Both the position numbers and the translations under genes were made by a program. From positions 64,001 through 128,000 of the forward strand of contig NJBH01000004.1 in the NCBI GenBank assembly GCA_005223125.1: DNA of 64,000 nt. Direction: 5' to 3'. Source of the DNA: Promethearchaeota archaeon Loki_b32. Lineage in GTDB: Archaea; Asgardarchaeota; Lokiarchaeia; Sigyniarchaeales; SOKP01. The notes under the pieces were generated by a model. That model was given only the letters and a program-made list of their open reading frames with translations, ran no database searches and had not been told where the DNA came from. Positions 1 to 15,467 of the stretch are shown piece after piece; the stretch's first letter is position 1, and every line of letters begins with the position of its first letter.

Positions 1-2568
1 TATTAAATCTGTATCAAATTTGATATTATCTTGTAAATTGGTATCAAAAACATTAATTTCAAACTTACTTGTTCCACTATTTTTCTCTTTAATTACAGGT
101 GGATCGTCTAAATCATATCTCAAAAAAATAGCATCTTTTCTTCGCTCACGATAATATCTTTCAAATTCTTTCTTTGCCATTTGAAGATCTCTATAAAGAA
201 CTATTAATTTGAGGTCTTGCTTTAATTCTTTTAGGATGTTAATATTTTTTATAGCACTTTCACAACATATATTTGAGCAATAAGTTATCCCTTTTTCTTG
301 TCTAGCATTAACACATAATAGTGTAGTAATATGATTAAGTTTGGTAAGCCATGAGTTATCTTCATCTTTTAATTTCTGTTCTAGTTGTAATTGCGTAATT
401 ACATTGTGGTTTGTATATTTATATTCAAAAAATTCATTAGGTTTTAATTCTTGTCCTCCAGTGGCAACAATAATAGTGCCAATTTTTAACTCATGAATTT
501 TTTTATCTGAATCGATAAGTGAAACATTATAATTACCAAGAAATCCATTAATATCTTTTAAATCAGAATTTGAAAAGATTTGAATGTTCTTATTCTGTTC
601 AACCTTTTCTATGGTTTCGTTTAGTAAGATTGAAGCATCCTCTTGAGTAGGATATAGCATATTTAAGTATCTTAAATTTCCACCTAAATATTTCTCTTTT
701 TCTATAAGATAAACAATAAATCCTTGATTAGCTATATTTAAAGCAGCAGTCATTCCGGATATTCCTCCGCCAATTACCATTGCAGTTTGAGTAATTTTCA
801 ATTTCTTTTCTTCTTGTGATTTTAATAATCTTGATTTAGCAACACCCATTCTTATTAAATCAATTGCTTTTTCCGTAGCAAGCTCCTTTTCTGTCATATG
901 TACCCATGAACATTGATCACGGATATTCACCATTTCAAATAAGTATTTATTTAATCCCGCTTCTTGACATGTCTCCTGGAATAAAGATTCGTGTGTTCTT
1001 GGCGTACAAGAAGCTACAATAAATCTATTTAAATTATATTCACCTATTACTTCTCTAATTCGTTCTTGAGAATCTGAACTACAAGAATACAAGTTATCTT
1101 CACAAAAAACTACATTAGGCAACGTTTTTATGTGTTCTATAACCTGAGGAATATCAATATATTTTCCAATATTAATACCACAATGACAGATAAGGACCCC
1201 AATTCTAGGTATATCTGTTTCTTTAACTATTTTTTCTGGTATCCTAATAACTTTTTCTTTTGTTTCAGTAAATTTAAAGGAATTAAGTAAAGTCGCTACT
1301 TGTGAAGCCACCCCACTAGCGTCAGCTACCGTTTCTGGTATATCCATTGGACCTTGACAAAAACCAACTAAAAAAATACCTTCTTTAGAGGATAAAGATT
1401 TATTATAATATGATTTCTCTTTAAAAAAATTATAATCATCCAACTCGATATCTAAAACTTTAGATAATTCTTTAGTTCCAGCTGAAGGGACAAGAGGTGT
1501 AGCTAATACTACAAGATTTGCATTAAAGTCCTTAAATTCACCCGTTTTTAGATCTTCATAATGAATTACTAAATCATTTGTTTCTGGATCTTCTTTTATT
1601 CTGCTAATTTTAGTTTGGAAATATTTTACTCCATATTCTTCCTGAGCTCTCTGGGTAAATTCATAAAAATTTTTACCGTAAGCTCTAACATCATGCCTAA
1701 ATACAAAACATTTTGAGTTTTCAGAATGTTCCCGAGTTATGATCGCTTCTTTGGCACTATACATACAACATACTGATGAACAATAGGGAATTCCCTCACG
1801 TAAATCCCTTGAGCCCGCACACTGAATAAATGCTATTTTTTCTGGCTCTTTCTCATCACTAGGTCGTAAAATTTGACCCTCAAATGGTCCAGAGGCCGAT
1901 AATATTCGTTCATATTCTAAAGCACTTACCACATTTTTATAATTATAACCCCATCTTGAGGTTAACTCTTCTCCTAACACATCATATCCAGTAGCAACAA
2001 CGAGAGCACCAACGTTTAAATTGATTTCTTGAGGTTTTTGTTCATAATCTATTGCTTCTGCCGTACAAACTTTCTCACAAACCCCGCATACTCCTTTAGT
2101 GAGTTTTAAGCATAACTCAGGGTCAATTAAATATACAGGAGGTACTGCTTGAAGAAATGGAATGTAAACAGATTTCCTTTTACCTAGATTCATATCAAAG
2201 ATATTAGGGAATTCAATCTTCGGACATTTAACTGCACAGTCACCACATCCTTTACATTTAGTCTCGTCAATATAACGAGGTTTCTTAAGGACTGTAACCA
2301 CAAAATTTCCTGGCTTTCCAGAAACTTTTTGAACTTCATGATAAGTCATTAATTCAATGTTAGGATTTCTAAATACTTCTACCATTTTAGGGGCAAGAAT
2401 ACATAAACTGCAATCGTTTGTAGGAAAGGTTTTATCAAGTTGAGCCATTCTTCCTCCAATTGAAGGTGTCTTTTCTACTAAATAAACTTTAAATCCCAAT
2501 TCAGTTAAATCTAAAGAAGTTTGTATCCCTGCTATCCCACCACCAATAACTAACACTGATCCTTCCAT
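1..2568 (-). CDS. hdrA: Large HdrA-like FAD/Fe-S protein (two fused HdrA modules), Cys form; runs off the window start
   Basis: Manual translation from ATG at 2568: MEGSVLVIGGGIAGIQTSLDL...RMAQLDKTFPTNDCSLCILAPKM; later ICHCGINIG and DQCSWVH; same architecture as 5437-8478. Absent from the ORF track, consistent with no stop inside the window. Confidence 0.92.
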   Translation of the reverse strand, partial: MEGSVLVIGGGIAGIQTSLDLTELGFKVYLVEKTPSIGGRMAQLDKTFPTNDCSLCILAPKMVEVFRNPNIELMTYHEVQKVSGKPGNFVVTVLKKPRYIDETKCKGCGDCAVKCPKIEFPNIFDMNLGKRKSVYIPFLQAVPPVYLIDPELCLKLTKGVCGVCEKVCTAEAIDYEQKPQEINLNVGALVVATGYDVLGEELTSRWGYNYKNVVSALEYERILSASGPFEGQILRPSDEKEPEKIAFIQCAGSRDLREGIPYCSSVCCMYSAKEAIITREHSENSKCFVFRHDVRAYGKNFYEFTQRAQEEYGVKYFQTKISRIKEDPETNDLVIHYEDLKTGEFKDFNANLVVLATPLVPSAGTKELSKVLDIELDDYNFFKEKSYYNKSLSSKEGIFLVGFCQGPMDIPETVADASGVASQVATLLNSFKFTETKEKVIRIPEKIVKETDIPRIGVLICHCGINIGKYIDIPQVIEHIKTLPNVVFCEDNLYSCSSDSQERIREVIGEYNLNRFIVASCTPRTHESLFQETCQEAGLNKYLFEMVNIRDQCSWVHMTEKELATEKAIDLIRMGVAKSRLLKSQEEKKLKITQTAMVIGGGISGMTAALNIANQGFIVYLIEKEKYLGGNLRYLNMLYPTQEDASILLNETIEKVEQNKNIQIFSNSDLKDINGFLGNYNVSLIDSDKKIHELKIGTIIVATGGQELKPNEFFEYKYTNHNVITQLQLEQKLKDEDNSWLTKLNHITTLLCVNARQEKGITYCSNICCESAIKNINILKELKQDLKLIVLYRDLQMAKKEFERYYRERRKDAIFLRYDLDDPPVIKEKNSGTSKFEINVFDTNLQDNIKFDTDLI

Positions 2569-3062
2569 TATTTACCACTTTCTAATTTTTTTGATAAAGA
2601 TTTGTTTTCCACATCTTTTTATCCGTTGATTAAAAAATAAAGAAATGTAATTATATAAATATTTTTATGAAAAATGATCAAGGTCCGACACTTTTTATTT
2701 TTAAATGGTCGGATTTCATGCATCTTTCACGTTTATTCTTTCATAAACAATCATAATTCTTTTGAGATTTAATTTTATACGACATTATGGGTATATTTAG
2801 TTAAATTTAACTTTCTCAGCGATCAATATTCTACATTATGCATGTTTACGAAAAAAATTAAACCCGAAATATCATAAAGTTACAAAATAATAAAAAAAAT
2901 CATTAATTCTGATAATTGTGTATGTCTTCCAAGAACTCTCATTTTAAAAGATTCATATAAAAGAAGATAAAATAATATAATATGATGAGCACACAGGAAA
3001 GGAAGATAGTAGAATAAAAGGGAAAATAAAAAAGTAGCTTAATTAGATTCAGTCATATAAAA

Positions 3063-3340
3063 AGATCCTTATACTTTTCTTTGATTTTTTTTAGAAGATC
3101 TTTTTTTTCCTTCTCATCCATTTCAGAAAGTTTTTCTCTTATTTTATGAATTTCCTCTAAAGATTTTTCTTCTTTTAATAAACCATTTCCTCTGGAGTAC
3201 AAATAATCACATCTTTTTCTTTTAATCTTTCATTTATGTTTCTAACTTGAAATTTAGTTTTGAATTTAACTATGTGGGTTAAATTCCAACTAACTATTGC
3301 ATCTATTTTATATTTTGTTGCTATAGCAATATGGAGGGCA
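3063..3340 (-). pseudogene. Truncated copy of the 3' part of the PIN-domain gene plus downstream mini-ORF (paralog of 19458-19735)
   Basis: 278-nt colinear, highly similar copy of 19458-19735; similarity stops at GGGCA where the 20-bp GC-rich repeat begins. Confidence 0.85.
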
Positions 3341-3355
3341 CCACGGGGGAGGGAG
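3336..3355 (+). repeat. 20-bp GC-rich direct repeat, copy 1 (GGGCACCACGGGGGAGGGAG)
   Basis: Identical to 4929-4948; conspicuous in AT-rich DNA. Confidence 0.9.
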
Positions 3356-3556
3356 GGAACATTTTTTCTAAAAAAATCATTCTGTTCTCGTATTATTCTT
3401 TGATCTTCCCCCTAATATTCCTTTTATTTGAATGATCTGGAATAAGGAGTGTGTTTAAAAATCCTATCAACTTTTTTTGAATAAATATTAAAGCAATAAT
3501 TTTGATCAAAAATTATTTATAAATATATTTAGATATTTTTATTGAGGTAAATAATA

Positions 3557-3742
3557 ATGGCAACGGAAAAAGAAAATGTCATGCAAATGATAAAAGAACT
3601 CCCTGATGATATTACATTAGAGGATATCATGTATCATTTATATGCTAGGGAAAAGATCATCCGTGGTCTAAAGGATGCTAACGAAGGAAGAAAAGTATCG
3701 AACGAAAAAGCAAAAGAAGTTATTGAAAAATGGTTCGAATAG
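3557..3742 (+). CDS. Putative antitoxin of the RelE/ParE module
   Basis: 61-aa acidic protein overlapping the downstream RelE/ParE toxin; GAGGT ribosome-binding site upstream. Confidence 0.75.
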   Translation: MATEKENVMQMIKELPDDITLEDIMYHLYAREKIIRGLKDANEGRKVSNEKAKEVIEKWFE

Positions 3743-4014
3743 AATGGACTGAACGCTCTTTAGAAGACTTAAATGAGATACATGATTATATAGCGCGGGA
3801 TTCTAAAAGTTATGCAAACCTTTTTGTTAATAAGTTATATGATGCCGTTCAGAAACTAAAGGAGTTTCCGAATATAGGTAGAATTGTGCCGGAAGTCAAT
3901 ATTGCATCCGTAAGAGAAATCATTTTTCAAAATTATAGAATTATTTATAGAAATATGAATGATTATGTTGAAATCATTACAATATTTCATGGAAGTCGTT
4001 TGTTGAGATTATAA
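3730..4014 (+). CDS. Type II TA RelE/ParE-family toxin
   Basis: IEWTERSLEDLNEIHDYIA...FPNIGRIVPE...YRIIY...IITIFHG is the typical ParE/RelE pattern. Confidence 0.9.
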   Translation: MVRIEWTERSLEDLNEIHDYIARDSKSYANLFVNKLYDAVQKLKEFPNIGRIVPEVNIASVREIIFQNYRIIYRNMNDYVEIITIFHGSRLLRL

Positions 4015-4150
4015 GAATATAAATATTACAAAATTAATAACGGGAGGATATTTTCTCCCGATCCTGATCCCTGGAAGTAGGAAGAATACGATAAAATTAA
4101 TCAGGCAGTAAGAGTTTTCCAAAAAAAAAATGCCAAGTTAAGTCTCAAAA

Positions 4151-4552
4151 CTACCAAGATCTTAGTTGTAAATTGAACATTTCTTTAAGTTTTTTATCAT
4201 TAGAGTAAATAATGTTCGTATCGTGCTTTTTACACGTCATGGCGATGATTTCATCATGCGATTCGTGACTTTTAGCATTATTTAACATCAATTTAATGAT
4301 TGTCATATTAAAATCATCGATAATGATATTTTCTGAGCTTTCCCATCGATTGAGAGCCTCCTTAAATGCGCTTGTTTTCCCAGCTTTTCTCATTTTCCAA
4401 AGCAATTCTGCGATTGCAATTGTAGGTAGGATTACTGTTATTTCTCCATTTATTACTTTTTTTTTCAATTGTTGGAGTATTGGGGGAATTTTTTGATAGT
4501 CATAATGAAAATAGAATAGAACCTGAGCACCAATTACTGCCTTTTCTATCAT
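4151..4552 (-). CDS. PIN-domain (VapC-like) toxin
   Basis: PTIAIAE, HDEIIAMT and IYSNDKKL PIN motifs; the first catalytic Asp appears replaced (VIGAQV); lies downstream of an AbrB antitoxin. Confidence 0.75.
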   Translation of the reverse strand: MIEKAVIGAQVLFYFHYDYQKIPPILQQLKKKVINGEITVILPTIAIAELLWKMRKAGKTSAFKEALNRWESSENIIIDDFNMTIIKLMLNNAKSHESHDEIIAMTCKKHDTNIIYSNDKKLKEMFNLQLRSW

Positions 4553-4580
4553 TTTATATCAAGAACCATCTATTTTTTGA

Positions 4581-4856
4581 TTATTCCTCAATAGGAAATA
4601 ACGATTTTTTTGCTTGATCTAACTCTTCCTCTGTAAATGGAGGTACATCTTCAAATAAATTATCTTCAATCTCAAGAGGATGTATTTTTTTTTTGATTAG
4701 AATAGTCTTATCGTCCTTCAATTCCATCTCAACCTCATTTTTATCTTCAATAGCTAACTTGTCTCTCCATTCTTTTGGTATTACAATCCTTCCATTTGAT
4801 GAGACTTTTTGAGTAATTTTTTCGGTCATTTGTATTTTCATTTTTCTAATTGTCAT
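4581..4856 (-). CDS. AbrB/MazE/SpoVT-family antitoxin
   Basis: KVSSNGRIVIPKEWRDKLAI motif. Confidence 0.88.
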   Translation of the reverse strand: MTIRKMKIQMTEKITQKVSSNGRIVIPKEWRDKLAIEDKNEVEMELKDDKTILIKKKIHPLEIEDNLFEDVPPFTEEELDQAKKSLFPIEE

Positions 4857-4928
4857 TATAATATAGTAAATGACAGTTATTATATTTTTTCAAAACTAGC
4901 AATAGCTAAGAACTTATTCTTTAGGAGG

Positions 4929-4948
4929 GGGCACCACGGGGGAGGGAG
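4929..4948 (+). repeat. 20-bp GC-rich direct repeat, copy 2
   Basis: Identical to 3336-3355. Confidence 0.9.
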
Positions 4949-4984
4949 ATAATAGCGAAAGTAATAAATAAAAAATTTGTTATT

Positions 4985-5416
4985 TTAAATTGCTTGTAAT
5001 GGACCTAGTTTTTTAATTTTATTAGTAAATTCAGTGATAACTTCAGCGAATCGTTTTCCTTCAGAGGCACTTACCCATTCAAGCCTAAATCTTTTATCAA
5101 GATTAAATATTTTTAAAACTTCTCGAAAACGTTCAAATCTATCTCTCGCAAACTCATTTCCTTTCAAGTAATGACAATCACCAATATGACATCCGGTTAC
5201 AATAACTCCATCGATACCATCTTTAAATGCCTCTAAAATGAAAGCGGGGTCTACTCTACCAGAACACATTACACGTACTATTCTAATTGTGGGGGGGTAT
5301 TGAAATCGTGAGACTCCAGCTAAATCTGCTCCAGCATAACTACACCAATTACAACAAAAACATAAGATATTTGGGTGAAATTCCTTATTTTTTACTTTCT
5401 TTTCTTTACTTATCAT
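4985..5416 (-). CDS. mvhD: MvhD/FlpD hydrogenase Fe-S subunit (Cys form)
   Basis: CCNWCSYAGADLAG, VMCSGRVD, GCHIGDCHY, WVSASEG. Confidence 0.95.
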   Translation of the reverse strand: MISKEKKVKNKEFHPNILCFCCNWCSYAGADLAGVSRFQYPPTIRIVRVMCSGRVDPAFILEAFKDGIDGVIVTGCHIGDCHYLKGNEFARDRFERFREVLKIFNLDKRFRLEWVSASEGKRFAEVITEFTNKIKKLGPLQAI

Positions 5417-5436
5417 TTTCTTTTATTAATTATAAT

Positions 5437-8400
5437 TTAACTTTGAACTAAAAGTGCAGAAATCATAGCGTGAATTTGCTCAAAACCAAAATGTTTAATA
5501 ACTATTGTTGAGTTAGGGCATTGAGCACCACATGTACCACATCCTTTGCAAAGTGCAGGATTTATGTGGGATTTCAATATAGTCATTGTGAAATCTTCGA
5601 ACGTTCTTTCTTCCTCTATTAATTCTATAGCGTTAAATTGACAAACTTCAAGACAACTTCCACAACCAATGCAATTTTCTTCTATTACAACAGCTACAAG
5701 CCCAGATGTTACAAGTTTTTCAGCGCTTAAAATTTTTACTGCTTGGGCAGCAGCTCCATTGGATTGTGCTATTGATTCTCGAAGATCTTTAGGTGAATGT
5801 GCGCTCCCACATAAATATATACCATCTGTTGCAAAATCAATTGGTCTCAATTTAACATGAGCTTCCAAAAAGAATTTGTCCTCATTAAGTGGAACTTTTA
5901 ACATTTTTGCTAAATCTTCATTTTCTTTTATAGGTGCTACGAGACCTGTACTTAATACAATTAAATCAGGATTTATTTCAATTTCTCCTAAATCTGGATT
6001 GTTTACTATTATTTTTAATTGTTTATTTTTAATATTTAATTCTGGAGGTTTAGTTTCATCAAATCTTATGAAGATAACCTTTTTATCTCGTGCTAGGTTA
6101 TAATATTTTTCTTTAAAACCATATGTCCTAATATCACGATAAAGAATCACTATTTCTATTTTAGGATTGATTTCTTTTGCTTTTAACGCATTTTTAATGG
6201 CTTCTGAACAACAGATTCTGCTACAATATGGGTGATCTTCATTTCTGGATCCAACGCATTGAATCATAACTATTGATTTCACTCCTTTTACTTTATCTGT
6301 AGTAAAAAGATCTTTTTCAAATTCAGTTTGGGTTATAATTCTTTGGTCTTGTCCAAAATTGTATTCATTTGGTTGATATTCTTTTGCTCCAGTCGCTACA
6401 ACTATTATTCCAAGTTCAAGATCAACACTTTTGTTATTATTTCCGTAGTTTATATTTGTGGAAAAATTTCCAATATACCCTGATATTGAATTGATTTGAG
6501 CATTTTTAAATACTTGAATAAGTTGATTATTTTCAACATTTTTAATTAAATTTTTAAGATATTCCTGAATATTATCATTTTCAAGGGTCCGATAAAGATT
6601 TTTAGCAATTCCCCCTAGAGAATCTTCCTTTTCAATTAAGTAAACTTCATAACCTTGAGAAGCTAGATTTAATGCTGCTGACATTCCAGATACACCACCA
6701 CCTATAATCAAACCTTTATTTATTACAGCTATTTCTTGTTCCTGTAACGGGATTAATTGGCTAGCCTTTGCTACTGACATGCGCAATAAGTCTTTTGATT
6801 TTGCCGTTGCTTTTTCAGGTTCATGCATATGGACCCACGAACATTGATCTCGAATATTTACCATTTCAAATAGATATTTATTTAAACCAACTTCTCTTAT
6901 TGTCGCTTGAAATAAAGCTTCATGAGTTCTTGGAGTACATGATGCAACAATCACTCTATTCAGTTTGTTATTTTCTATTTTTTCTTTAATATTAGTTTGA
7001 GTATCTGCTGAACAGGTATATAAATTATGTTCGGCATAAACAACATTGGGTAAAGTTTTAACATATTCTACTACATTAGGAACATCAACAACCCCACCAA
7101 TATTTATTCCGCAGTGACATATAAATACTCCTATTCGCGGTGGTTGATCAGTTACATCCAATTCTTCGGGAAGTTCTTTCTTAGAGACTAATTTGTTTCT
7201 TGCTTCTGATAGAAGAACATTTACACATCCAGCAGCAGCACTAGCTTCAATAACAGTTTCTGGAATATCTTTAGGTGTTGCGAAAGACCCACAAACATAA
7301 ATCCCTGGTCTTGAAGTATCTACGGGAGTAAAAGTTTCAGTTTTACAAAACCCATATTCATTTAATTGGATATTTAATTTCTGTGCTAATTCTTTTGCTT
7401 GTTGATTAGGTTGCATTCCTACAGAAAGGACGACTAGATTAAAAAATTCTTCAATAATTTTTCCATTTCCTGTTTCATAATAAACTTTTAAATCTTTAGA
7501 GTCCGGAATTTCTTTAATAGAAGATATTCTGCGCCTGATATATCTTATTCCATACTCATCCTTTGCTCGTTCAATATATTTATCAAAATCTTTACCATAT
7601 GCTCTGATATCCATTGTAAAAATGGTTGGATCTATAATATTCATATGCTCTTTCGCTATAACTGCTTCTTTTGTAGTATACATACAACATACTGAAGAGC
7701 AATAATCATTACCCTGCTTTCTGTCCCTTGAACCAATACAATTTAAAAAGGCAATTTTTTTAGGAATAATTCCATCAGAAGGGCGAATTATTAAACCTGA
7801 GTGTGGTCCACTAGCACTTAGAATACGCTCAAATTCAATACTAGTGATTACATTTAGATATTTACCATAGCCGAATTGCTTTAAAGGGGTAGGATCGTAT
7901 TCATCAAACCCTATTGCTAATACTACAGCACCTACATTAAGGTTAATTTCTTTATTTTGAAGTTCATAATCTATAGCTTTTACTTTACATATTCCCTTAC
8001 ATATTCCACAACCTATACATTTGTCTTTGTCAATTGAAAACACTAATGGAACTGCCTGTGGAAATTTTACGGATATTGCTGCTATATTAGAAAGTTTCTC
8101 ATTAAAAAAATCTATAGCCTCTATTGGACATTGTTGAGCACACAAACCACATCCAGTACATTTATTTTGATCTAAACGAAGTGTTCTTTGAGTTAAATCA
8201 ACCTTAAAATTACCAGGTTCACCTTCAATTTTTTCTATTGAAGAATTAATTAAAATATCGATATTTTCATGTCGTCCAGTTTCTACTAATTTCGGGGCAA
8301 GAATACATATTGCACAGTCATTAGTTGGAAATGTTTTATCTAATTGAGACATAACTCCACCAATACTGGTTGTTGATTCTGCGAGATAAACTTTATAACC

Positions 8401-8478
8401 TGAATCTGCTAAATCTATAGAAGTTTGAATACCTGCAATTCCACCACCAATTACTAGAACAGCTCCGACTTTCTCCAT
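5437..8478 (-). CDS. hdrA: Large HdrA-like heterodisulfide reductase subunit A (fused modules), Cys form
   Basis: Two GGGxxG FAD motifs, DKTFPTNDC, CHCGINI, CTPRTHE, CVGSR and ferredoxin CxxCxxCxxxC motifs. Confidence 0.93.
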   Translation of the reverse strand: MEKVGAVLVIGGGIAGIQTSIDLADSGYKVYLAESTTSIGGVMSQLDKTFPTNDCAICILAPKLVETGRHENIDILINSSIEKIEGEPGNFKVDLTQRTLRLDQNKCTGCGLCAQQCPIEAIDFFNEKLSNIAAISVKFPQAVPLVFSIDKDKCIGCGICKGICKVKAIDYELQNKEINLNVGAVVLAIGFDEYDPTPLKQFGYGKYLNVITSIEFERILSASGPHSGLIIRPSDGIIPKKIAFLNCIGSRDRKQGNDYCSSVCCMYTTKEAVIAKEHMNIIDPTIFTMDIRAYGKDFDKYIERAKDEYGIRYIRRRISSIKEIPDSKDLKVYYETGNGKIIEEFFNLVVLSVGMQPNQQAKELAQKLNIQLNEYGFCKTETFTPVDTSRPGIYVCGSFATPKDIPETVIEASAAAGCVNVLLSEARNKLVSKKELPEELDVTDQPPRIGVFICHCGINIGGVVDVPNVVEYVKTLPNVVYAEHNLYTCSADTQTNIKEKIENNKLNRVIVASCTPRTHEALFQATIREVGLNKYLFEMVNIRDQCSWVHMHEPEKATAKSKDLLRMSVAKASQLIPLQEQEIAVINKGLIIGGGVSGMSAALNLASQGYEVYLIEKEDSLGGIAKNLYRTLENDNIQEYLKNLIKNVENNQLIQVFKNAQINSISGYIGNFSTNINYGNNNKSVDLELGIIVVATGAKEYQPNEYNFGQDQRIITQTEFEKDLFTTDKVKGVKSIVMIQCVGSRNEDHPYCSRICCSEAIKNALKAKEINPKIEIVILYRDIRTYGFKEKYYNLARDKKVIFIRFDETKPPELNIKNKQLKIIVNNPDLGEIEINPDLIVLSTGLVAPIKENEDLAKMLKVPLNEDKFFLEAHVKLRPIDFATDGIYLCGSAHSPKDLRESIAQSNGAAAQAVKILSAEKLVTSGLVAVVIEENCIGCGSCLEVCQFNAIELIEEERTFEDFTMTILKSHINPALCKGCGTCGAQCPNSTIVIKHFGFEQIHAMISALLVQS

Positions 8479-9755
8479 TACTTTCCCTCAACATTTTTAT
8501 TGGGTTCTATTATTTTTATCAGATCTACTAAAAACTCTGAAAAATCTAAAATTTCAATAGAAGAAAAGTCTTCATAGTCTTTTTTTAGACAATTTAGATG
8601 CATGCGACATTTTGGACAAGATGTAATCATTTTGGTTCCAACAGCTTTAGCTTCTAAAAGACGTTTATATCGCAATGCTTTAGACCGCTCATTACAATTC
8701 ATCCAAGAATTTACTCCACAACAATAAGAATTTTCTTTATTGTGTTCCATTTCTTTAAAATTATAACCAATAATTTTCAAATGCTTGAAGATTTCTCGGA
8801 CTTCCTCAATTATTTTATTATCCTTTGGTAAAAATCTACTTAACCTACAAGGGTCATGATAAGTAAAAGGAATAACCTCATCAGATTTATTAGGATTTTT
8901 AAATAGAACTTTTCCCTGCTTCCATTTATCAAAAATATATTCAATTATGTGTTTAACTTCAAATTTTTTATTAAACTCTTCAAACAGTTTTGGATAATCA
9001 ATTTTAAAGGTTCTATAACATTCAGCACAAGCAGTAACAATTGTTGTAGCTCCCGTTTCTTCAAACCGTTTAACATTTTTTTTTGCTAATTCAATAAAGC
9101 TTTCGAATTTTGCTTGACCCCAATATAAATCGTGTCCACAGCATATCTCATCTTTTAGAATCACTACCGGATCTTTTTCTAATTGACAAATAATCTTAAG
9201 TGTGCTTTCTGCTATAGATAATGAGTCTTCAAATTCATAGTTAAAAAAAGGTAAACATCCGACATAATATAAAATATTTCCCTTATCTGAAGTTTTACAT
9301 CCTTTTGGAATCCAATCTAAAGGTCTCTCAATTTCCATATTGTCTTGACTCATCATTTCTGACATCAAAGGATAAATACCTTTATGAGCAATAGAACGAT
9401 CAGGATTTTGAATATCTTTTAATCGCATTTTATATCTAGCAATTCTGACAATATCAGCAAAATTAATATCTTTAGGGCAATGTTCTAGGCAACTATTACA
9501 CATTAAACAATCCCATAATACCTGACTATTAATTATCTCATCTTCAAAGCCTTCTAATATCATTTGAATAATTCTACTAGGTGTAAATTTTTGAACCTTA
9601 CTGATTTGACATACACCCGAGCAACGGGCACATTGATAACACTTTTTTAGCAAATTAATTAAATCTGGTTCATAAATCTTTCTTAAGTATAAATTAGAAT
9701 CATTTTCTTCTTGTTTTACCTTTTTAAGATTTTCGATTTCAGTTATGAGATTCAC
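8478..9755 (-). CDS. HdrD/GlcF-like (Fe-S)-binding protein with CCG domains
   Basis: CYQCARCSGVC, CLMCNSCLEHCP, CCG, YHDPC, TSCPKC; its stop overlaps the hdrA start (TAATG). Confidence 0.88.
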   Translation of the reverse strand: MNLITEIENLKKVKQEENDSNLYLRKIYEPDLINLLKKCYQCARCSGVCQISKVQKFTPSRIIQMILEGFEDEIINSQVLWDCLMCNSCLEHCPKDINFADIVRIARYKMRLKDIQNPDRSIAHKGIYPLMSEMMSQDNMEIERPLDWIPKGCKTSDKGNILYYVGCLPFFNYEFEDSLSIAESTLKIICQLEKDPVVILKDEICCGHDLYWGQAKFESFIELAKKNVKRFEETGATTIVTACAECYRTFKIDYPKLFEEFNKKFEVKHIIEYIFDKWKQGKVLFKNPNKSDEVIPFTYHDPCRLSRFLPKDNKIIEEVREIFKHLKIIGYNFKEMEHNKENSYCCGVNSWMNCNERSKALRYKRLLEAKAVGTKMITSCPKCRMHLNCLKKDYEDFSSIEILDFSEFLVDLIKIIEPNKNVEGK

Positions 9756-9759
9756 TTCC

Positions 9760-10872
9760 TTATTTTAAGTTTTTCATGAATTCTTTTCTTCGTTCTATTT
9801 TTGATTCTGAAAATTTAGCTATTAGGGTTTTTATATTTCCTTTTGTATTTTCATCAAGTTTTAAGTTTTTAATAATGTTTTTATCTAATGCCTTCTGGAG
9901 TAACTGCCTACCTTTTTCAGTTCGGGGTATTACAGTAGTAAATCTATCTGGGGATCCAAGCCCTCCAAACGAAATATCTGAATAAATATTGGTAAAATCA
10001 ATACATGAATGACAAGCTGGGCGTATATAATTAACTAATTTATTAAAAGGAATATGGATTATCTTTTCTTTTGAGTCTTTATCTTCTAGCTTTAAAATTA
10101 AATCCTCCTTAATATTTATTTTTATAATATCTTCGAATTTTATCTTAAATTCTTTTTCAAATATCTCGATTTGAGATTTTTCAAATAGAAAATTGTGATA
10201 ACAGAATAAACCTAAACAAATCTCAACATGTTCTGAAGGGGTAACTCCTAAAGTCTGCATACATCTTATAGTATAAATTTGACAAGGTGTTCCCACAATT
10301 GCTAACTTTTTAAATTTATAATGACTTAATTGAGGAATTGAGGTTGTATAAGTGCTAAACCTTTGTATTTCATCTACTTGTGGAGATATATTTAAAATTG
10401 TACCCGATGCTTTAATTAGGTCGTCTTTATTCTCTGCCAACATAGCTTCTCGAGAAAATGGACTCTCAGCTTTAGAGACTATTGCTCCATCGATAATTTT
10501 ATTTTCTAATAAGAAATTTAAAAGTGTATTTACCACACCTCCATCTGTCCCATGTTTTAGAAATTCTTTATCCGTACTTTGACAAGAATAGAAATCTTCA
10601 GCAAATCCGTAAGGCATTGATTTAAAATCAGTGAATTGATATGTCTTATTAAGATCATCATCTAAAATATGTGTTTGAGGGCACAAGTAATAACATATAC
10701 CACATTCAAGGCATGCATCCTTATTTATATATTCAGGAGGGGATTTAGGCTCTTTAAAGCCTATTACATTCTCGAATGTTGCCGAACAGAAAGAAGTACA
10801 TCCACCACATTCTTGGCAGATCCCTTTTTCATGAACTTCCTTAATTAAATCTTGAAATGTTTTTATACTCAT
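9760..10872 (-). CDS. F420-reducing hydrogenase/dehydrogenase beta-subunit (FrhB/FdhB) family
   Basis: Ferredoxin motifs, DGGVV, VGTPCQ, GLFC, CxxCxDF, DISFG; start moved to ATG 10872 (MSIKTF) to avoid overlapping the upstream gene. Confidence 0.88.
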   Translation of the reverse strand: MSIKTFQDLIKEVHEKGICQECGGCTSFCSATFENVIGFKEPKSPPEYINKDACLECGICYYLCPQTHILDDDLNKTYQFTDFKSMPYGFAEDFYSCQSTDKEFLKHGTDGGVVNTLLNFLLENKIIDGAIVSKAESPFSREAMLAENKDDLIKASGTILNISPQVDEIQRFSTYTTSIPQLSHYKFKKLAIVGTPCQIYTIRCMQTLGVTPSEHVEICLGLFCYHNFLFEKSQIEIFEKEFKIKFEDIIKINIKEDLILKLEDKDSKEKIIHIPFNKLVNYIRPACHSCIDFTNIYSDISFGGLGSPDRFTTVIPRTEKGRQLLQKALDKNIIKNLKLDENTKGNIKTLIAKFSESKIERRKEFMKNLK

Positions 10873-10888
10873 ATTAATAATTTTTATA

Positions 10889-12385
10889 TTACTCCTTTTC
10901 CAATTTGATTGGTTTACAATTTTTTCTTTTGATACCAGCAATCCTTTCTAATAAGGGTTGCCCTGGTTTAACCTCCTTTAAGCTTTTAGATTCTATTAAA
11001 CCTGCTTTAATTGCCTCTTTATAGATTTTTTCACCTATTTTTGTTCTTGTTATTACTGATGACCAGCCACTAGGTGAACCTATTGATCCTACAGAAATAT
11101 CAGCAAAATCGGCTGTTAAATCTTCACAATAATGACAATTATGGCGAGCATAGGACTTAACTTCTTTTAAGGGTACTCTTAGGTCCTCACCAGAATCTAA
11201 GTATATAATGAATTTACCTCCACTTATGTCCATTTTTGTTACTTTATTAAAATCTTTTTGAAATTGTTCTTTAATTAAGTTAAGTACGCCCTCGTAAGGA
11301 AAAGATTCCATGCAGAAAAGTCCTATTCTATATTTGATATTTTTGAAAAATGGTAATCCACTCGGAAACAAAGTACCCTTTTCAATAGCATTCATTATAC
11401 ATGGAGTACCTACAACAGCTATTTTGTCATATTTCTTGGCTTTATCTATAATAGCTAAAGTAGATGCATTTGCATATTTAGTTCCCCCAGTCTTATATAA
11501 ATCTTTCAAATCATCCACAATGACGGGTTCAGGCTTCCATTTCTCTTCTGAGTGCTGTACTGCTACAATTGCGTCAACCAGTTTATTTTCTAATAAGTAT
11601 TGTAAAATGGATGTAACAACACCACCATCTTGTCTTACTTTTTTAATATCATCCTTAGTGGTGCTGGCAGAATAAGTATTGATATAACCATTAATTTTTT
11701 CTGAAAATTTTAAAGATTTATCAAGCTTATTTATACTTCTGCCCGCTTGCTCAATTGAAAATGATTTCGGGCAAACAGAATAACATATGCCGCATTTCAT
11801 ACAAGTTTCATCATCGATCTCCAAAATATCTGCTGTTACTGTAATTGCGTTTACAGGACAAATTGATGAGCACCAACCACATTGACAGCATACTTCAGAA
11901 TCAAACACAATAGAAACAGGTTCAAAAAAATGTTCAATGAAGTCATCAGGCAGATCTTTAACTTGATATCTATAGAAATATTCTTTTTCCTCGACTTTTT
12001 TTTCTTCTCCCTTTATTTTCTTGATAACAGTTTTAGTCTTTATTTCGATATGTTCTTCAATATATCCCTGTTCTTTAAGATAAATTACATCACGAATTAC
12101 ATTTTCTCTAGGAAACTCTTTTAGAATTTTTGCAATTTCCTCTAAAAATAATGGTTCCTTACCTTTTAATGATTCTAACACTAATTTACGCTCTGTTTCA
12201 GCATCGATCATAGCATCCAGAATTTCATAAAACTCCTCCTCAGAAAGTTTTCCTACACTTAGAATATCATTCTTTGCTTCGAAGAAAGCTCGAATTTGAA
12301 AATTCTCAACTGCTTTATAGGTTGCATCCATTAAATTTTTTGGAGATACTCCATTGAAATTTACATTGTTTGAAATTTGAACCAT
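10889..12385 (-). CDS. FrhB/FdhB-family protein with extra N-terminal (helical/wHTH-like) region
   Basis: CCQCGWCSSIC, QDGGVVT, VGTPC, GLFCME, CHYCEDLTADFADISVGSIG. Confidence 0.88.
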   Translation of the reverse strand: MVQISNNVNFNGVSPKNLMDATYKAVENFQIRAFFEAKNDILSVGKLSEEEFYEILDAMIDAETERKLVLESLKGKEPLFLEEIAKILKEFPRENVIRDVIYLKEQGYIEEHIEIKTKTVIKKIKGEEKKVEEKEYFYRYQVKDLPDDFIEHFFEPVSIVFDSEVCCQCGWCSSICPVNAITVTADILEIDDETCMKCGICYSVCPKSFSIEQAGRSINKLDKSLKFSEKINGYINTYSASTTKDDIKKVRQDGGVVTSILQYLLENKLVDAIVAVQHSEEKWKPEPVIVDDLKDLYKTGGTKYANASTLAIIDKAKKYDKIAVVGTPCIMNAIEKGTLFPSGLPFFKNIKYRIGLFCMESFPYEGVLNLIKEQFQKDFNKVTKMDISGGKFIIYLDSGEDLRVPLKEVKSYARHNCHYCEDLTADFADISVGSIGSPSGWSSVITRTKIGEKIYKEAIKAGLIESKSLKEVKPGQPLLERIAGIKRKNCKPIKLEKE

Positions 12386-12969: not shown

Positions 12970-15008
12970 TTAACCACCTCCTAAAAGACCATCAATTTCA
13001 GCGAATAATTGGTGATCTCGATAATATCTGATGTCAATTGCTTGAGTAGGACAACAAGTAGCACAAATACCGCAACCGTCACAATTTATTTCATCAATAA
13101 ACGCTCCGATATCTTCTTCAATTCTAATAGCATTTTTAGGACATTCTTTTTCACATCGTCTACATGAAATGCAGAATTCACTATCTACTTCAGCAGTAAT
13201 AAGTTCAATATCAATTTCTCCTGGTGATGTTACTTCAGCAACTTTACTAGCCGCAGCTCTAGCTTGAGAAACGGAGTAAGAAATATTTTTCGGTCCTTGA
13301 GCAAATCCAGCAATAAAAATTCCTTTTGCCTTTGTTTCTTGTGGCATTAAACCGAAATGTGATTCTGTAAGAAAGCCATATATATTAGTATCAAGATTTA
13401 ATACCTTTACAATCTGTTCAGTACCTTTTGAAGGAAGTGCTGCTGTAGATAAAACGACTAAATCAGCATCAATTTTTACAATCTTATCTGTTAATGACGA
13501 ATATACACGAACTTTCACGTTTTTGGTTTCGGGATCTTCAGAGATTTCACCGACTTTTCCACGAATCATTCTGATACCTGCATCTTTAGCTCGTTCGTAG
13601 TATTCTTCAAATCCTTTTTCAGGAGTTCTTATGTCAATATAGCAAATAGTAATGTTCGCATCGGGAAATTCTTCGAGCAATAAGCGTCCATTTTTTAGAG
13701 CAAGCATACAGCATACACCACTACAATAGGTTCGTTCAGTTTCTCGACTTCCTACGCATTGTATAAATACAATTTCTTTGGGTTGTTTATTATCTGAAAG
13801 CCGGTGTACATGTCCTTCAAGTGGTCCATTCGGAGCTAGTATTCGTTCTAATTGAACTTGAGTTATAACATTTTCGAATTCTCCATACCCATATTCACCA
13901 AAAGGTTCATGTATGTCCCAACCAGTTGTTATAATGATCGTACCAACTTCGATATTGACTTCCATAGGTACTTGACTAAAATCAATGGCATCTAATTCAC
14001 AGGCATCTACACATGAGAAACATTCAACACAAGCATCTCGGTCAATATCATATAAAAACGGTACTGCTTGACCAAATGGTATATCAATTGCTCTTCGAGC
14101 TCCTAAATGTTCATCGAAATAATTACTTACATATACGGGGCAAACCTCACTGCATGCACCACACCCATTGCATTCGTCTGTTGTATATCGCGGTTTTTTT
14201 TCAATTGTTACGTTATAATTACCAACATAACCCTCGATTTTTTTGACTTCACTATAGGTTAATAATTCAATGTTCTCATTTCTGTTGATATTTAGCATAA
14301 CAGGACCGCAGATTCATATTGCACAATCATCAGTGGGAAAAGTTCTGTCCAATTGAGCCATTCGTCCTCCGATTGTCGTTTTCTGTTCGACTAAGTAAAC
14401 TTTTATACCTTGGTTGGCAAGATCGAGCGCGGCATTCATTCCAGCTATACCCCCACCGACGATTAAAGTGGCCTTCTTAACTGGAACAGTCTTAATAGGA
14501 ATGGGTTCTAAAAGTTTAGCTCTTTCAATACCGCTTTTTACTAATGTTTTTGCTTTTTCTGTAGCCTCTTCTTTACTATCCGTGCACCAATTTTGCATTG
14601 AGCAGTAAATCTGCTTAAAAAAAATCTGCAATGTTCACGGACGTTAACCATCTGAAAGTAATAAGGATTTAAATCTGTTTTAGCAATTGTACCCCGGTAA
14701 ATCACTTCATGCGTACGCGGTGTTCAAGCTGATGCCACAATCCTATTTAAACCTTTTTCCTTGATATCTTCTATTATCTCATTTTGAGCGTTATCAGTTC
14801 ATAGAAAAGCGTTTTTCTTAGAAATTACAATATCATCAAAATTTTTGGTTGCAAACTCTACGAGCTCGTCGCAATCAACCTTAGAACGGATATTAATCCC
14901 TCATTTGCCAAAAACAAGGAAATCATACTTTTTTTGGCAGGCATAATATCCAATCCTTAGCTGTTCATTATCTTTATTAATCTTCGTATCATTCCATTGA
15001 CTATTCAT
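12970..15008 (-). CDS. hdrA: Selenoprotein HdrA (~657 aa after splicing): join(15008-14934, 14903-14626, 14590-12970); Sec UGA at 14901, 14799, 14724, 14314
   Basis: Manual translation: RIGYYACQ-U-GINI, AFL-U-TDNAQ, ASA-U-TPRTHE, VREHCSWCTD, PTDDCAI-U-ICGP. Each U aligns with Cys in both Cys-form paralogs here. Removing 30+35 nt gives a 1974-nt frame of typical HdrA length. Confidence 0.88.
14591..14625 (-). other. Putative 35-nt BHB-type (tRNA-endonuclease) mRNA intron 2 in hdrA
   Basis: UUGC/GCAA central helix, bulges AG^A and AA^U, outer CCGUG/CACGG helix, inner AGCAG/CUGCU hairpin. Excision gives CAT TGC AGT TGG (HCSW) and repairs the frame. Confidence 0.8.
14904..14933 (-). other. Putative 30-nt BHB-type mRNA intron 1 in hdrA
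   Basis: UGCC/GGCA central helix, bulges AA^A and AA^U, A/U intron stem, outer GAUAUUA/UAAUAUC helix. Excision gives TGC CAA TGA GGG (C-Q-U-G), matching CHCG. Confidence 0.75.
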
Positions 15009-15467
15009 TTTTTTCCCTCTTTCTTTTTTTCCACCTCTTATTTTTGTGACAATTCAACACTTATTTATGCGCAATAGTAAACATACTTACTGATATATAC
15101 AGTAGTGTAAAAATCTCTATGATAGCATAAATTTTGTAAATTAATATTATATCATTTAGATTTTATTCTTTTTAATATTTTTATTTCTTACTATTTATCT
15201 ATGTAAGCAAATTTTAGGATTGTGATTATAGATTCAAACCAAATTTTATCTTTATGAAAATTTAAGAACAAGAAATTTCGATAAGCATTAGGAAAAAAAG
15301 GGAGAATTGATTATTTTTGCACATTTTAATGAGAAAATTTGAGTTCATTATAAAAAAGAAAATATAAATTTAAATAAATTATAAGAAAAAAAAATTTAAA
15401 TAAAAATCAGATAATAATCTTACCATTAGAAATTTCATTGAATAAAATGTCTTAAAGATGTGAGAAT

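Follow-up and report, generated by a model that had tools for sequence, protein, structure and literature searches.

A frameshifting intron in a lokiarchaeal selenoprotein hdrA gene, one of many short, patchy mRNA introns probably removed by the tRNA splicing machinery

The window analysed here is a 64,000 nt stretch of DNA from Promethearchaeota archaeon Loki_b32 (GenBank assembly GCA_005223125.1, contig NJBH01000004.1, positions 64,001 to 128,000), in which a gene for a selenocysteine (Sec) containing HdrA is broken by a short insert that shifts the reading frame. The initial annotation took this insert for an intron with a relaxed splice site and suggested that splicing efficiency could gate production of the Sec enzyme relative to its Cys paralogues. 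The locus raises the question of whether the insert is removed from the RNA and, if it is, whether removal is a regulated step. We favour, at a probability of about 0.75, routine removal, with the insert (intron 2) being one of many short, patchily distributed mRNA introns excised by the tRNA machinery. The features of the locus are:

15008-12970, minus strand: Sec-hdrA, in three exons (15008-14934, 14903-14626 and 14590-12970)
14903, 14801, 14726 and 14316, minus strand: UGA-Sec codons of Sec-hdrA
14933-14904, minus strand: intron 1 of Sec-hdrA, 30 nt, in frame and free of stops, a bulge-helix-bulge (BHB) with a UGCC/GGCA central helix
14625-14591, minus strand: intron 2 of Sec-hdrA, 35 nt, frameshifting, a relaxed (BHL-like) BHB, from orthologue alignment, RNA contigs and folding
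12963-12502, minus strand: Sec-mvhD/vhuD, uninterrupted, with two UGA-Sec codons, starting 6 nt past the hdrA stop
12505-12471, minus strand: lokiSECIS (AUGA, 9-bp stem, 11-nt loop, GA), overlapping the mvhD stop and common to hdrA and mvhD

With UGA read as Sec and both inserts removed, the Sec-hdrA product is 657 aa long with Sec at positions 26, 60, 85 and 210. Conserved Cys positions occupied by UGA, the tandem gene order, the shared lokiSECIS and Sec machinery were all found, as in a lokiarchaeal Sec HdrA-VhuD pair, and the form of the lokiSECIS and the hdrA-mvhD arrangement match those of PMC4989117. A SepSecS gene is present in the genome and tRNA-Sec was matched only below the Rfam cut-off. 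Relatives with the same motif are labelled Promethearchaeota (Lokiarchaeia). Two further Sec-hdrA paralogues, at C36:16899-18842 (two Sec) and C50:16840-18804 (three Sec), each have their own lokiSECIS and are intron-free. The C50 paralogue is directly followed by a Sec-mvhD gene; the C36 paralogue is not, unlike the pairs reported in PMC4989117. Downstream of the Sec pair, positions 1-12385 of the window are occupied by a large Cys-type hdr cluster, which includes two FrhB-like genes, a CCG/Fe-S gene, a gene for a 1013-aa HdrA-like protein and a Cys mvhD, and ends with another HdrA-like gene crossing the window edge.

Intron 2 is in phase 2 and splits the AGU Ser codon of the conserved NxREHCSW motif. 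Within it, 14624-14617 form a U8 run and 14615-14611 pair with 14605-14601 in a 5-bp hairpin. The adjoining elements are:

14642-14626, minus strand: 5' exon flank, with an outer-helix arm (14642-14636), a central-helix arm (14631-14628) and the bulge AG before the cut
14590-14578, minus strand: 3' exon flank, with the last bulge base (U14590), a 2-bp helix and an outer-helix arm (14584-14578)
14543-14541, minus strand: TAG ending the unspliced frame, giving a product of 155 aa with no FAD domain

If both inserts are kept, the frame from the ATG at 15008 runs for 155 codons, departs from HdrA after EHC and reaches the TAG at 14543-14541, which is followed by a TAA. In the spliced protein the FAD-binding GxGxxG motif is at residue 163, and it is lost from the unspliced product because the frame ends before it. 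Re-translation gave the same tail, stop codon and loss of the FAD domain as had been described, and agrees that this gene can yield full-length HdrA only after splicing. The interval originally assigned to the feature (14541-14630) was based on a correct observation but has to be narrowed, as the insert is only 14625-14591 and the remainder is read-through tail.

The last six bases of the insert face the last six of the 5' exon in bulge-helix-bulge geometry, with a 4-bp central helix formed by UUGC (14631-14628) and GCAA (14596-14593) and cut sites at AG^A on the 5' side and in the 3' bulge at AA^U. Among shuffled inserts, 0.2% reached four Watson-Crick pairs in the central helix. A U14624-U14597 mismatch immediately follows the 5' bulge, as the initial annotation had noted. 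In folding, the strict BHB form lies +2.5 kcal/mol above the MFE and the pairing probability of the inner helix is 0; hence, the site is considered relaxed and BHL-like. The strict hBHBh' form, in which an intron-side helix closes the 5' bulge, is absent in this lineage and present in the four other lineages that bear the intron. Intron 2 is very probably a real intron of the tRNA type.

The joined form is observed in assembled RNA contigs. In X15 and X16, from study P3, 14626 is joined to 14590 with zero ambiguity and exactly 14591-14625 are skipped, the position of the join being that of the predicted BHB cuts. X15 also lacks the 30-nt intron 1. X18, from study P10, runs from 14590 into 14626-14638, a 13-nt loose end, with 1 difference in 138 nt, and consists of one 151-nt record at a depth of 3.2. 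No unspliced RNA contig was found among the assembled contigs of the three RNA runs (two studies), a data type from which rare forms are dropped and no spliced to unspliced ratio is obtainable. One contig, X6 (13899-15300), retains both inserts gap-free and is presumed to be DNA, its library type being unrecorded.

The insert is absent in the three RNA runs and present in the assembly and the X6 contig, and the strains are unmatched between these. X15 and X16 have SNPs that are absent in X6. X15 also has a mosaic tract between introns 1 and 2 (14822-14887, ~45 nt divergent), whose likeness to other species in the genus points to recombination within hdrA. With the SNPs and the mosaic in view, the X15/X16 strains may have a precisely intron-less DNA allele; L099 was tried as a DNA reference for the strain of X15 and did not match, agreeing at only 3/24 SNPs. 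The RNA contigs have the exon flank typical of intron bearers, found in 6/6 bearers and 0/46 intron-less alleles.

Among relatives, intron 2 is missing in 27 of the 28 genus orthologues aligned, the remaining one bearing it. Inserts of 34-35 nt with differing interiors are found at the exact intron 2 site in five lineages (this genome with the 97.8% identical contig L099; G024; L075/L098; L082; and L088), which are ~15% apart and in all of which the rest of hdrA is intact. Helix cells are paired across the bearers in 97.9% of cases. Compensatory changes convert C-G to U-A in the central helix, which is UUGU/ACAA in G024, and U-A to C-G in the inner helix; these counts come from six related sequences, and 15/500 shuffles reach the same level. 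The pair closing the 5' bulge is U-U in this lineage and G-C in the four others, where the strict BHB form lies no more than 0.2 kcal/mol above the MFE. The weakness of the site is thus private to this lineage, and the RNA junctions indicate that cleavage there is precise all the same. The full 7/7 exon-exon helix is found in 6/6 intron-bearing alleles and 0/46 intron-less ones and is built from synonymous codons: bearers use AGU for the Ser together with helix-forming flanks, and most intron-less sisters use UCN.

In a tree of hdrA built with the flanks of both introns masked, the bearers are scattered over five positions, always next to intron-less sisters, and their monophyly is rejected (AU p=0.0002). 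Duplicates and partial loci were omitted (L079, L086, L091, L094, L098, L112, L115, L119, L120, L123 and L125). The AGU codon and flanks shared by the bearers fit either recombination that moved the intron with its flanks or repeated loss. Gain and loss are patchy and probably occurred through recombination carrying the intron together with the exon flanks, and lateral exchange of intron 2 in this way is probable, the alternative on the same data being an ancient intron that was lost many times over by the same means; either reading is drawn from one recombining gene. A search of the genome for copies of nine introns found none, the best matches being chance ones of 16-21 nt, and so there is no intragenomic donor or repeat family.

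Intron 2 has company both in hdrA and elsewhere in the genome. The 3' cut of intron 1 is directly before the first UGA-Sec codon and, in this genome, the intron is flanked by an 8-bp exon-exon helix of synonymous codons. Different 30-nt BHB inserts occupy the site in L090 and L091, where the contigs are only 72% identical, and it is empty in 28 genus orthologues, which suggests that the site is recurrent or very old. At a third hdrA site, CDS position 334 in L009 (G020), 19 nt upstream of the intron 2 site, there is a 39-nt BHB-like insert. Further inserts in this genome (G000) are:

C57:12438-12465 (L131, L137-L166): uL11 intron, 28 nt, frameshifting BHB, in 10/30 genomes
C45:47178-47210 (L128, L167-L196): cdhD (Wood-Ljungdahl) intron, 33 nt, stop-containing BHB, in this genome only
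C30:11080-11110 (L199): insert in a ubiquitin-conjugating E2 gene, 31 nt, frameshifting, between Pfam positions 55/56
C27:21006-21037: BHB insert in a GlcD-like oxidase gene, 32 nt
C32:33921-33892: BHB insert in a DeoC/LacD aldolase gene, 30 nt, with a stop
C36:188607-188636: BHB insert in a LURP/scramblase-like gene, 30 nt, with a stop; G002 has an insert three codons upstream
C32:11030-11060: candidate BHB insert in a CCG/Fe-S protein gene, 31 nt, removal of which restores CxxCxxC

In total, the genome has at least eight such mRNA introns, including those in uL11, cdhD and the ubiquitin E2 gene. The uL11 introns hit a phylogenomic marker gene; there are two more sites in it (6 and 3 genomes) and G005 has all three. 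In relatives, cdhD is interrupted at two further positions, one of them 9 nt away, which makes three sites overall, and the E2 paralogue on C44 aligns across the insert junction. At G002 C2:6604 (L053), a 31-nt perfect BHB intron interrupts a gene that is uninterrupted in this genome. An ab initio BHB scan gave 34,408 raw candidates and was noisy even after coding and energy filters, and only homology-supported introns were counted for this reason; C27:40999, C50:15979, C13:16942 and C67:44990 were discarded because they proved to be intact genes or gene boundaries. In this Lokiarchaeia genus the introns are short and diverse in sequence, and they interrupt unrelated genes at motifs that are conserved. 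Non-canonically placed introns of 27-30 nt were also seen in tRNA genes (G000 C4:18478, and the tRNA-Arg of G024, L044), each occurring in only one of the two genomes, with a size and patchiness equal to those of the mRNA introns. ARAGORN detected only ~15 tRNAs in the genome.

The initial annotation had asked which type of EndA the genome encodes, and there are two subunits, with the broad-specificity loop present. The alpha subunit, which most resembles the catalytic subunit of Aeropyrum (E 2e-35), conserves Y143/H151/K182 and R176/W199 as well as a specificity-loop lysine, K60, corresponding to Aeropyrum K44; the second has no catalytic His, which fits a structural subunit. The Aeropyrum-type loop permits BHL cleavage (PMC3241643) and, judged by its sequence, the host EndA is a broad-specificity enzyme with a crenarchaeal-type loop. 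An intact RtcB gene is also present, and the cut geometry of intron 2 fits EndA. We infer that EndA and RtcB act on the hdrA mRNA. The exon arms would pair (7 bp and 2 bp), as would the 3' end of the intron and the 5' exon (4 bp), the two-subunit EndA would then cut at AG^A and AA^U, and RtcB would join the exons, restoring the HdrA frame. Splicing of intron 2 would be near-constitutive, with the intron tolerated rather than selected as a switch and the U-U mismatch representing drift permitted by a permissive EndA.

Two explanations dispense with splicing of this allele. Ribosomal slippage on the U8 at the 5' end of the insert, or internal initiation at an in-frame AUG near its 3' end, could in principle restore the frame with no excision, but the 97.8% identical allele in L099 has a U7 and a 34-nt insert, the U run is absent in four lineages, the AUG is unconserved and slippage would add ~12 foreign residues to the conserved NxREHCSW motif. 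RNA from which exactly 35 nt are missing refutes U8 slippage as the main route. A programmed ribosomal frameshift was likewise discarded, the run being variable in length or absent and the RNA having no insert, and we find this whole explanation hardly credible. Alternatively, the allele might be a pseudogene broken by a DNA lesion, and the joined RNA might derive from co-occurring strains with no insert in their DNA. Intron-less orthologues are in the majority, X15 and X16 are not from the X6 strain and strain mosaics exist, all of which suit this possibility. Against it, the remainder of the gene is intact in five lineages ~15% apart, the ends of the insert co-vary with the exon, the joined RNA has bearer-type flanks and a similar insert breaks uL11, the sole match per genome in the search. 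It is very improbable.

The other two accept splicing and make it a control point. The relaxed site could lead to condition-dependent splicing, such that Sec-HdrA is gated against the Cys paralogues by selenium or redox state, and it is true that splicing is obligatory for this gene, that the site is measurably suboptimal with competing pairings in folding, that Aeropyrum EndA cuts BHL more slowly than BHB (PMC3241643), that a negative-regulator role has been proposed for the cbf5 intron (PMC2738675) and that Sec-hdrA has two introns. However, the same Sec enzyme is made from 27 of 28 genus orthologues that lack the intron, the other four bearer lineages have canonical geometry and hence the relaxed site is unconserved, and the RNA contigs of all three runs are spliced. 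UGA codons 26, 60 and 85 precede the intron, so that a shortage of Sec would halt translation before it is reached, given the mechanism of Sec decoding. Intron 2 cannot gate the whole Sec branch because the two other Sec-hdrA genes, with their own SECIS and in one case a following Sec-mvhD, are intron-free, and mvhD itself is uninterrupted. Housekeeping genes, uL11 among them, have introns whose removal is just as obligatory, and the known archaeal Sec/Cys switch is transcriptional, via HrsM (PMC11097638). The gating originally proposed finds no support in these observations and is quite unlikely, as is condition-dependent retention of intron 2 more generally; a selenium switch, if true, would be a new regulatory layer, but the evidence points the other way. 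Limited EndA/RtcB capacity could instead slow all intron-bearing mRNAs under stress, the relaxed ones first, as a side effect. A single enzyme pair would have to serve the tRNA introns together with eight or more mRNA introns, among them those of uL11 and cdhD, and intron 2 is a weak substrate by folding, but such a throttle would have no conserved target set, because the intron-bearing genes differ from genome to genome, and none of the RNA contigs is unspliced. We consider it improbable. The same low standing is given to the broader proposal that Asgard mRNA splicing by EndA and RtcB is a condition-dependent control layer, in which weak sites are retained under stress or nutrient change to throttle energy-metabolism genes, and a forerunner of regulated RtcB-dependent splicing in eukaryotes. 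A sigma-70 promoter scan gave chance-level matches with a model that is inapplicable to archaea and was set aside.

Routine removal by the tRNA machinery has precedents. The closest is the cbf5 pre-mRNA intron of Desulfurococcales and Sulfolobales (Watanabe 2002; Yokobori 2009, PMC2738675), also a short CDS intron, often with a relaxed motif, in hosts with a hetero-oligomeric EndA, and with gains and losses and a regulatory role proposed but untested. It differs in involving one gene, one site, one gain and few losses, whereas in Lokiarchaeia many unrelated genes have several sites each, the introns vary within a genus, the host is an Asgard archaeon and a selenoprotein mRNA is included. The 5' UTR of HVO_1309 in Haloferax volcanii has a BHB intron (PMC7714728); this too is in an EndA-processed mRNA and its removal is apparently required for efficient expression, but it is untranslated, causes no frameshift, is conserved in haloarchaea and is handled by a narrow-specificity enzyme type. 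These two, cbf5 and the Haloferax 5' UTR intron, are the mRNA cases named as known in the 2020 paper (PMC7714728). Non-canonical tRNA introns of Asgard archaea and Thermoproteales (bioRxiv 10.64898/2026.10.13.758758; PMC11291895) fall in the same size range, have BHB boundaries, were gained repeatedly against a permissive background of two EndA paralogues and arrived by an unknown route, but they are in tRNA genes, and searching the text of these papers turned up no mRNA introns. In Asgard archaea they are abundant and repeatedly gained, and according to the preprint splicing has been demonstrated for none of those newly described (bioRxiv 10.64898/2026.10.13.758758). The lokiarchaeal multi-Sec HdrA-VhuD pairs (PMC4989117; PMC11227280) have the same gene order, six UGA-Sec codons, SECIS form and UAA stop on hdrA and, unlike here, no introns are reported in the text searched.

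The likeness to HAC1/XBP1 drawn in the initial annotation extends only to the removal of an mRNA intron by a non-spliceosomal route and to the class of the putative ligase, a tRNA ligase that belongs to the RtcB family in animals and is Trl1 in yeast (PMC4090602). The stress-activated IRE1 nuclease, conserved single target and inducibility of that system (PMC4090602) were not found in the hdrA case. Conservation of the intron in its target gene does not extend beyond 1/28 other genus orthologues, and the IRE1 KEN domain (PF06479) had no match in the 95.5% complete genome, in a search whose control was also unmatched anywhere.

A literature search for Asgard mRNA introns found nothing relevant. 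In the literature searched, the BHB/BHL class is known and is documented within archaeal coding sequences only for cbf5; the multi-gene, patchy mRNA introns of Asgard archaea are new. For an Asgard metabolic gene, an exact spliced junction is now seen in environmental RNA. If the preferred reading is true, mRNA splicing by the tRNA machinery would be routine in close prokaryotic relatives of the eukaryotes, genes of Lokiarchaeia that appear frameshifted or split, among them marker genes and selenoproteins, would be misannotated, and the gain, loss and lateral spread of introns would become testable at the scale of populations.
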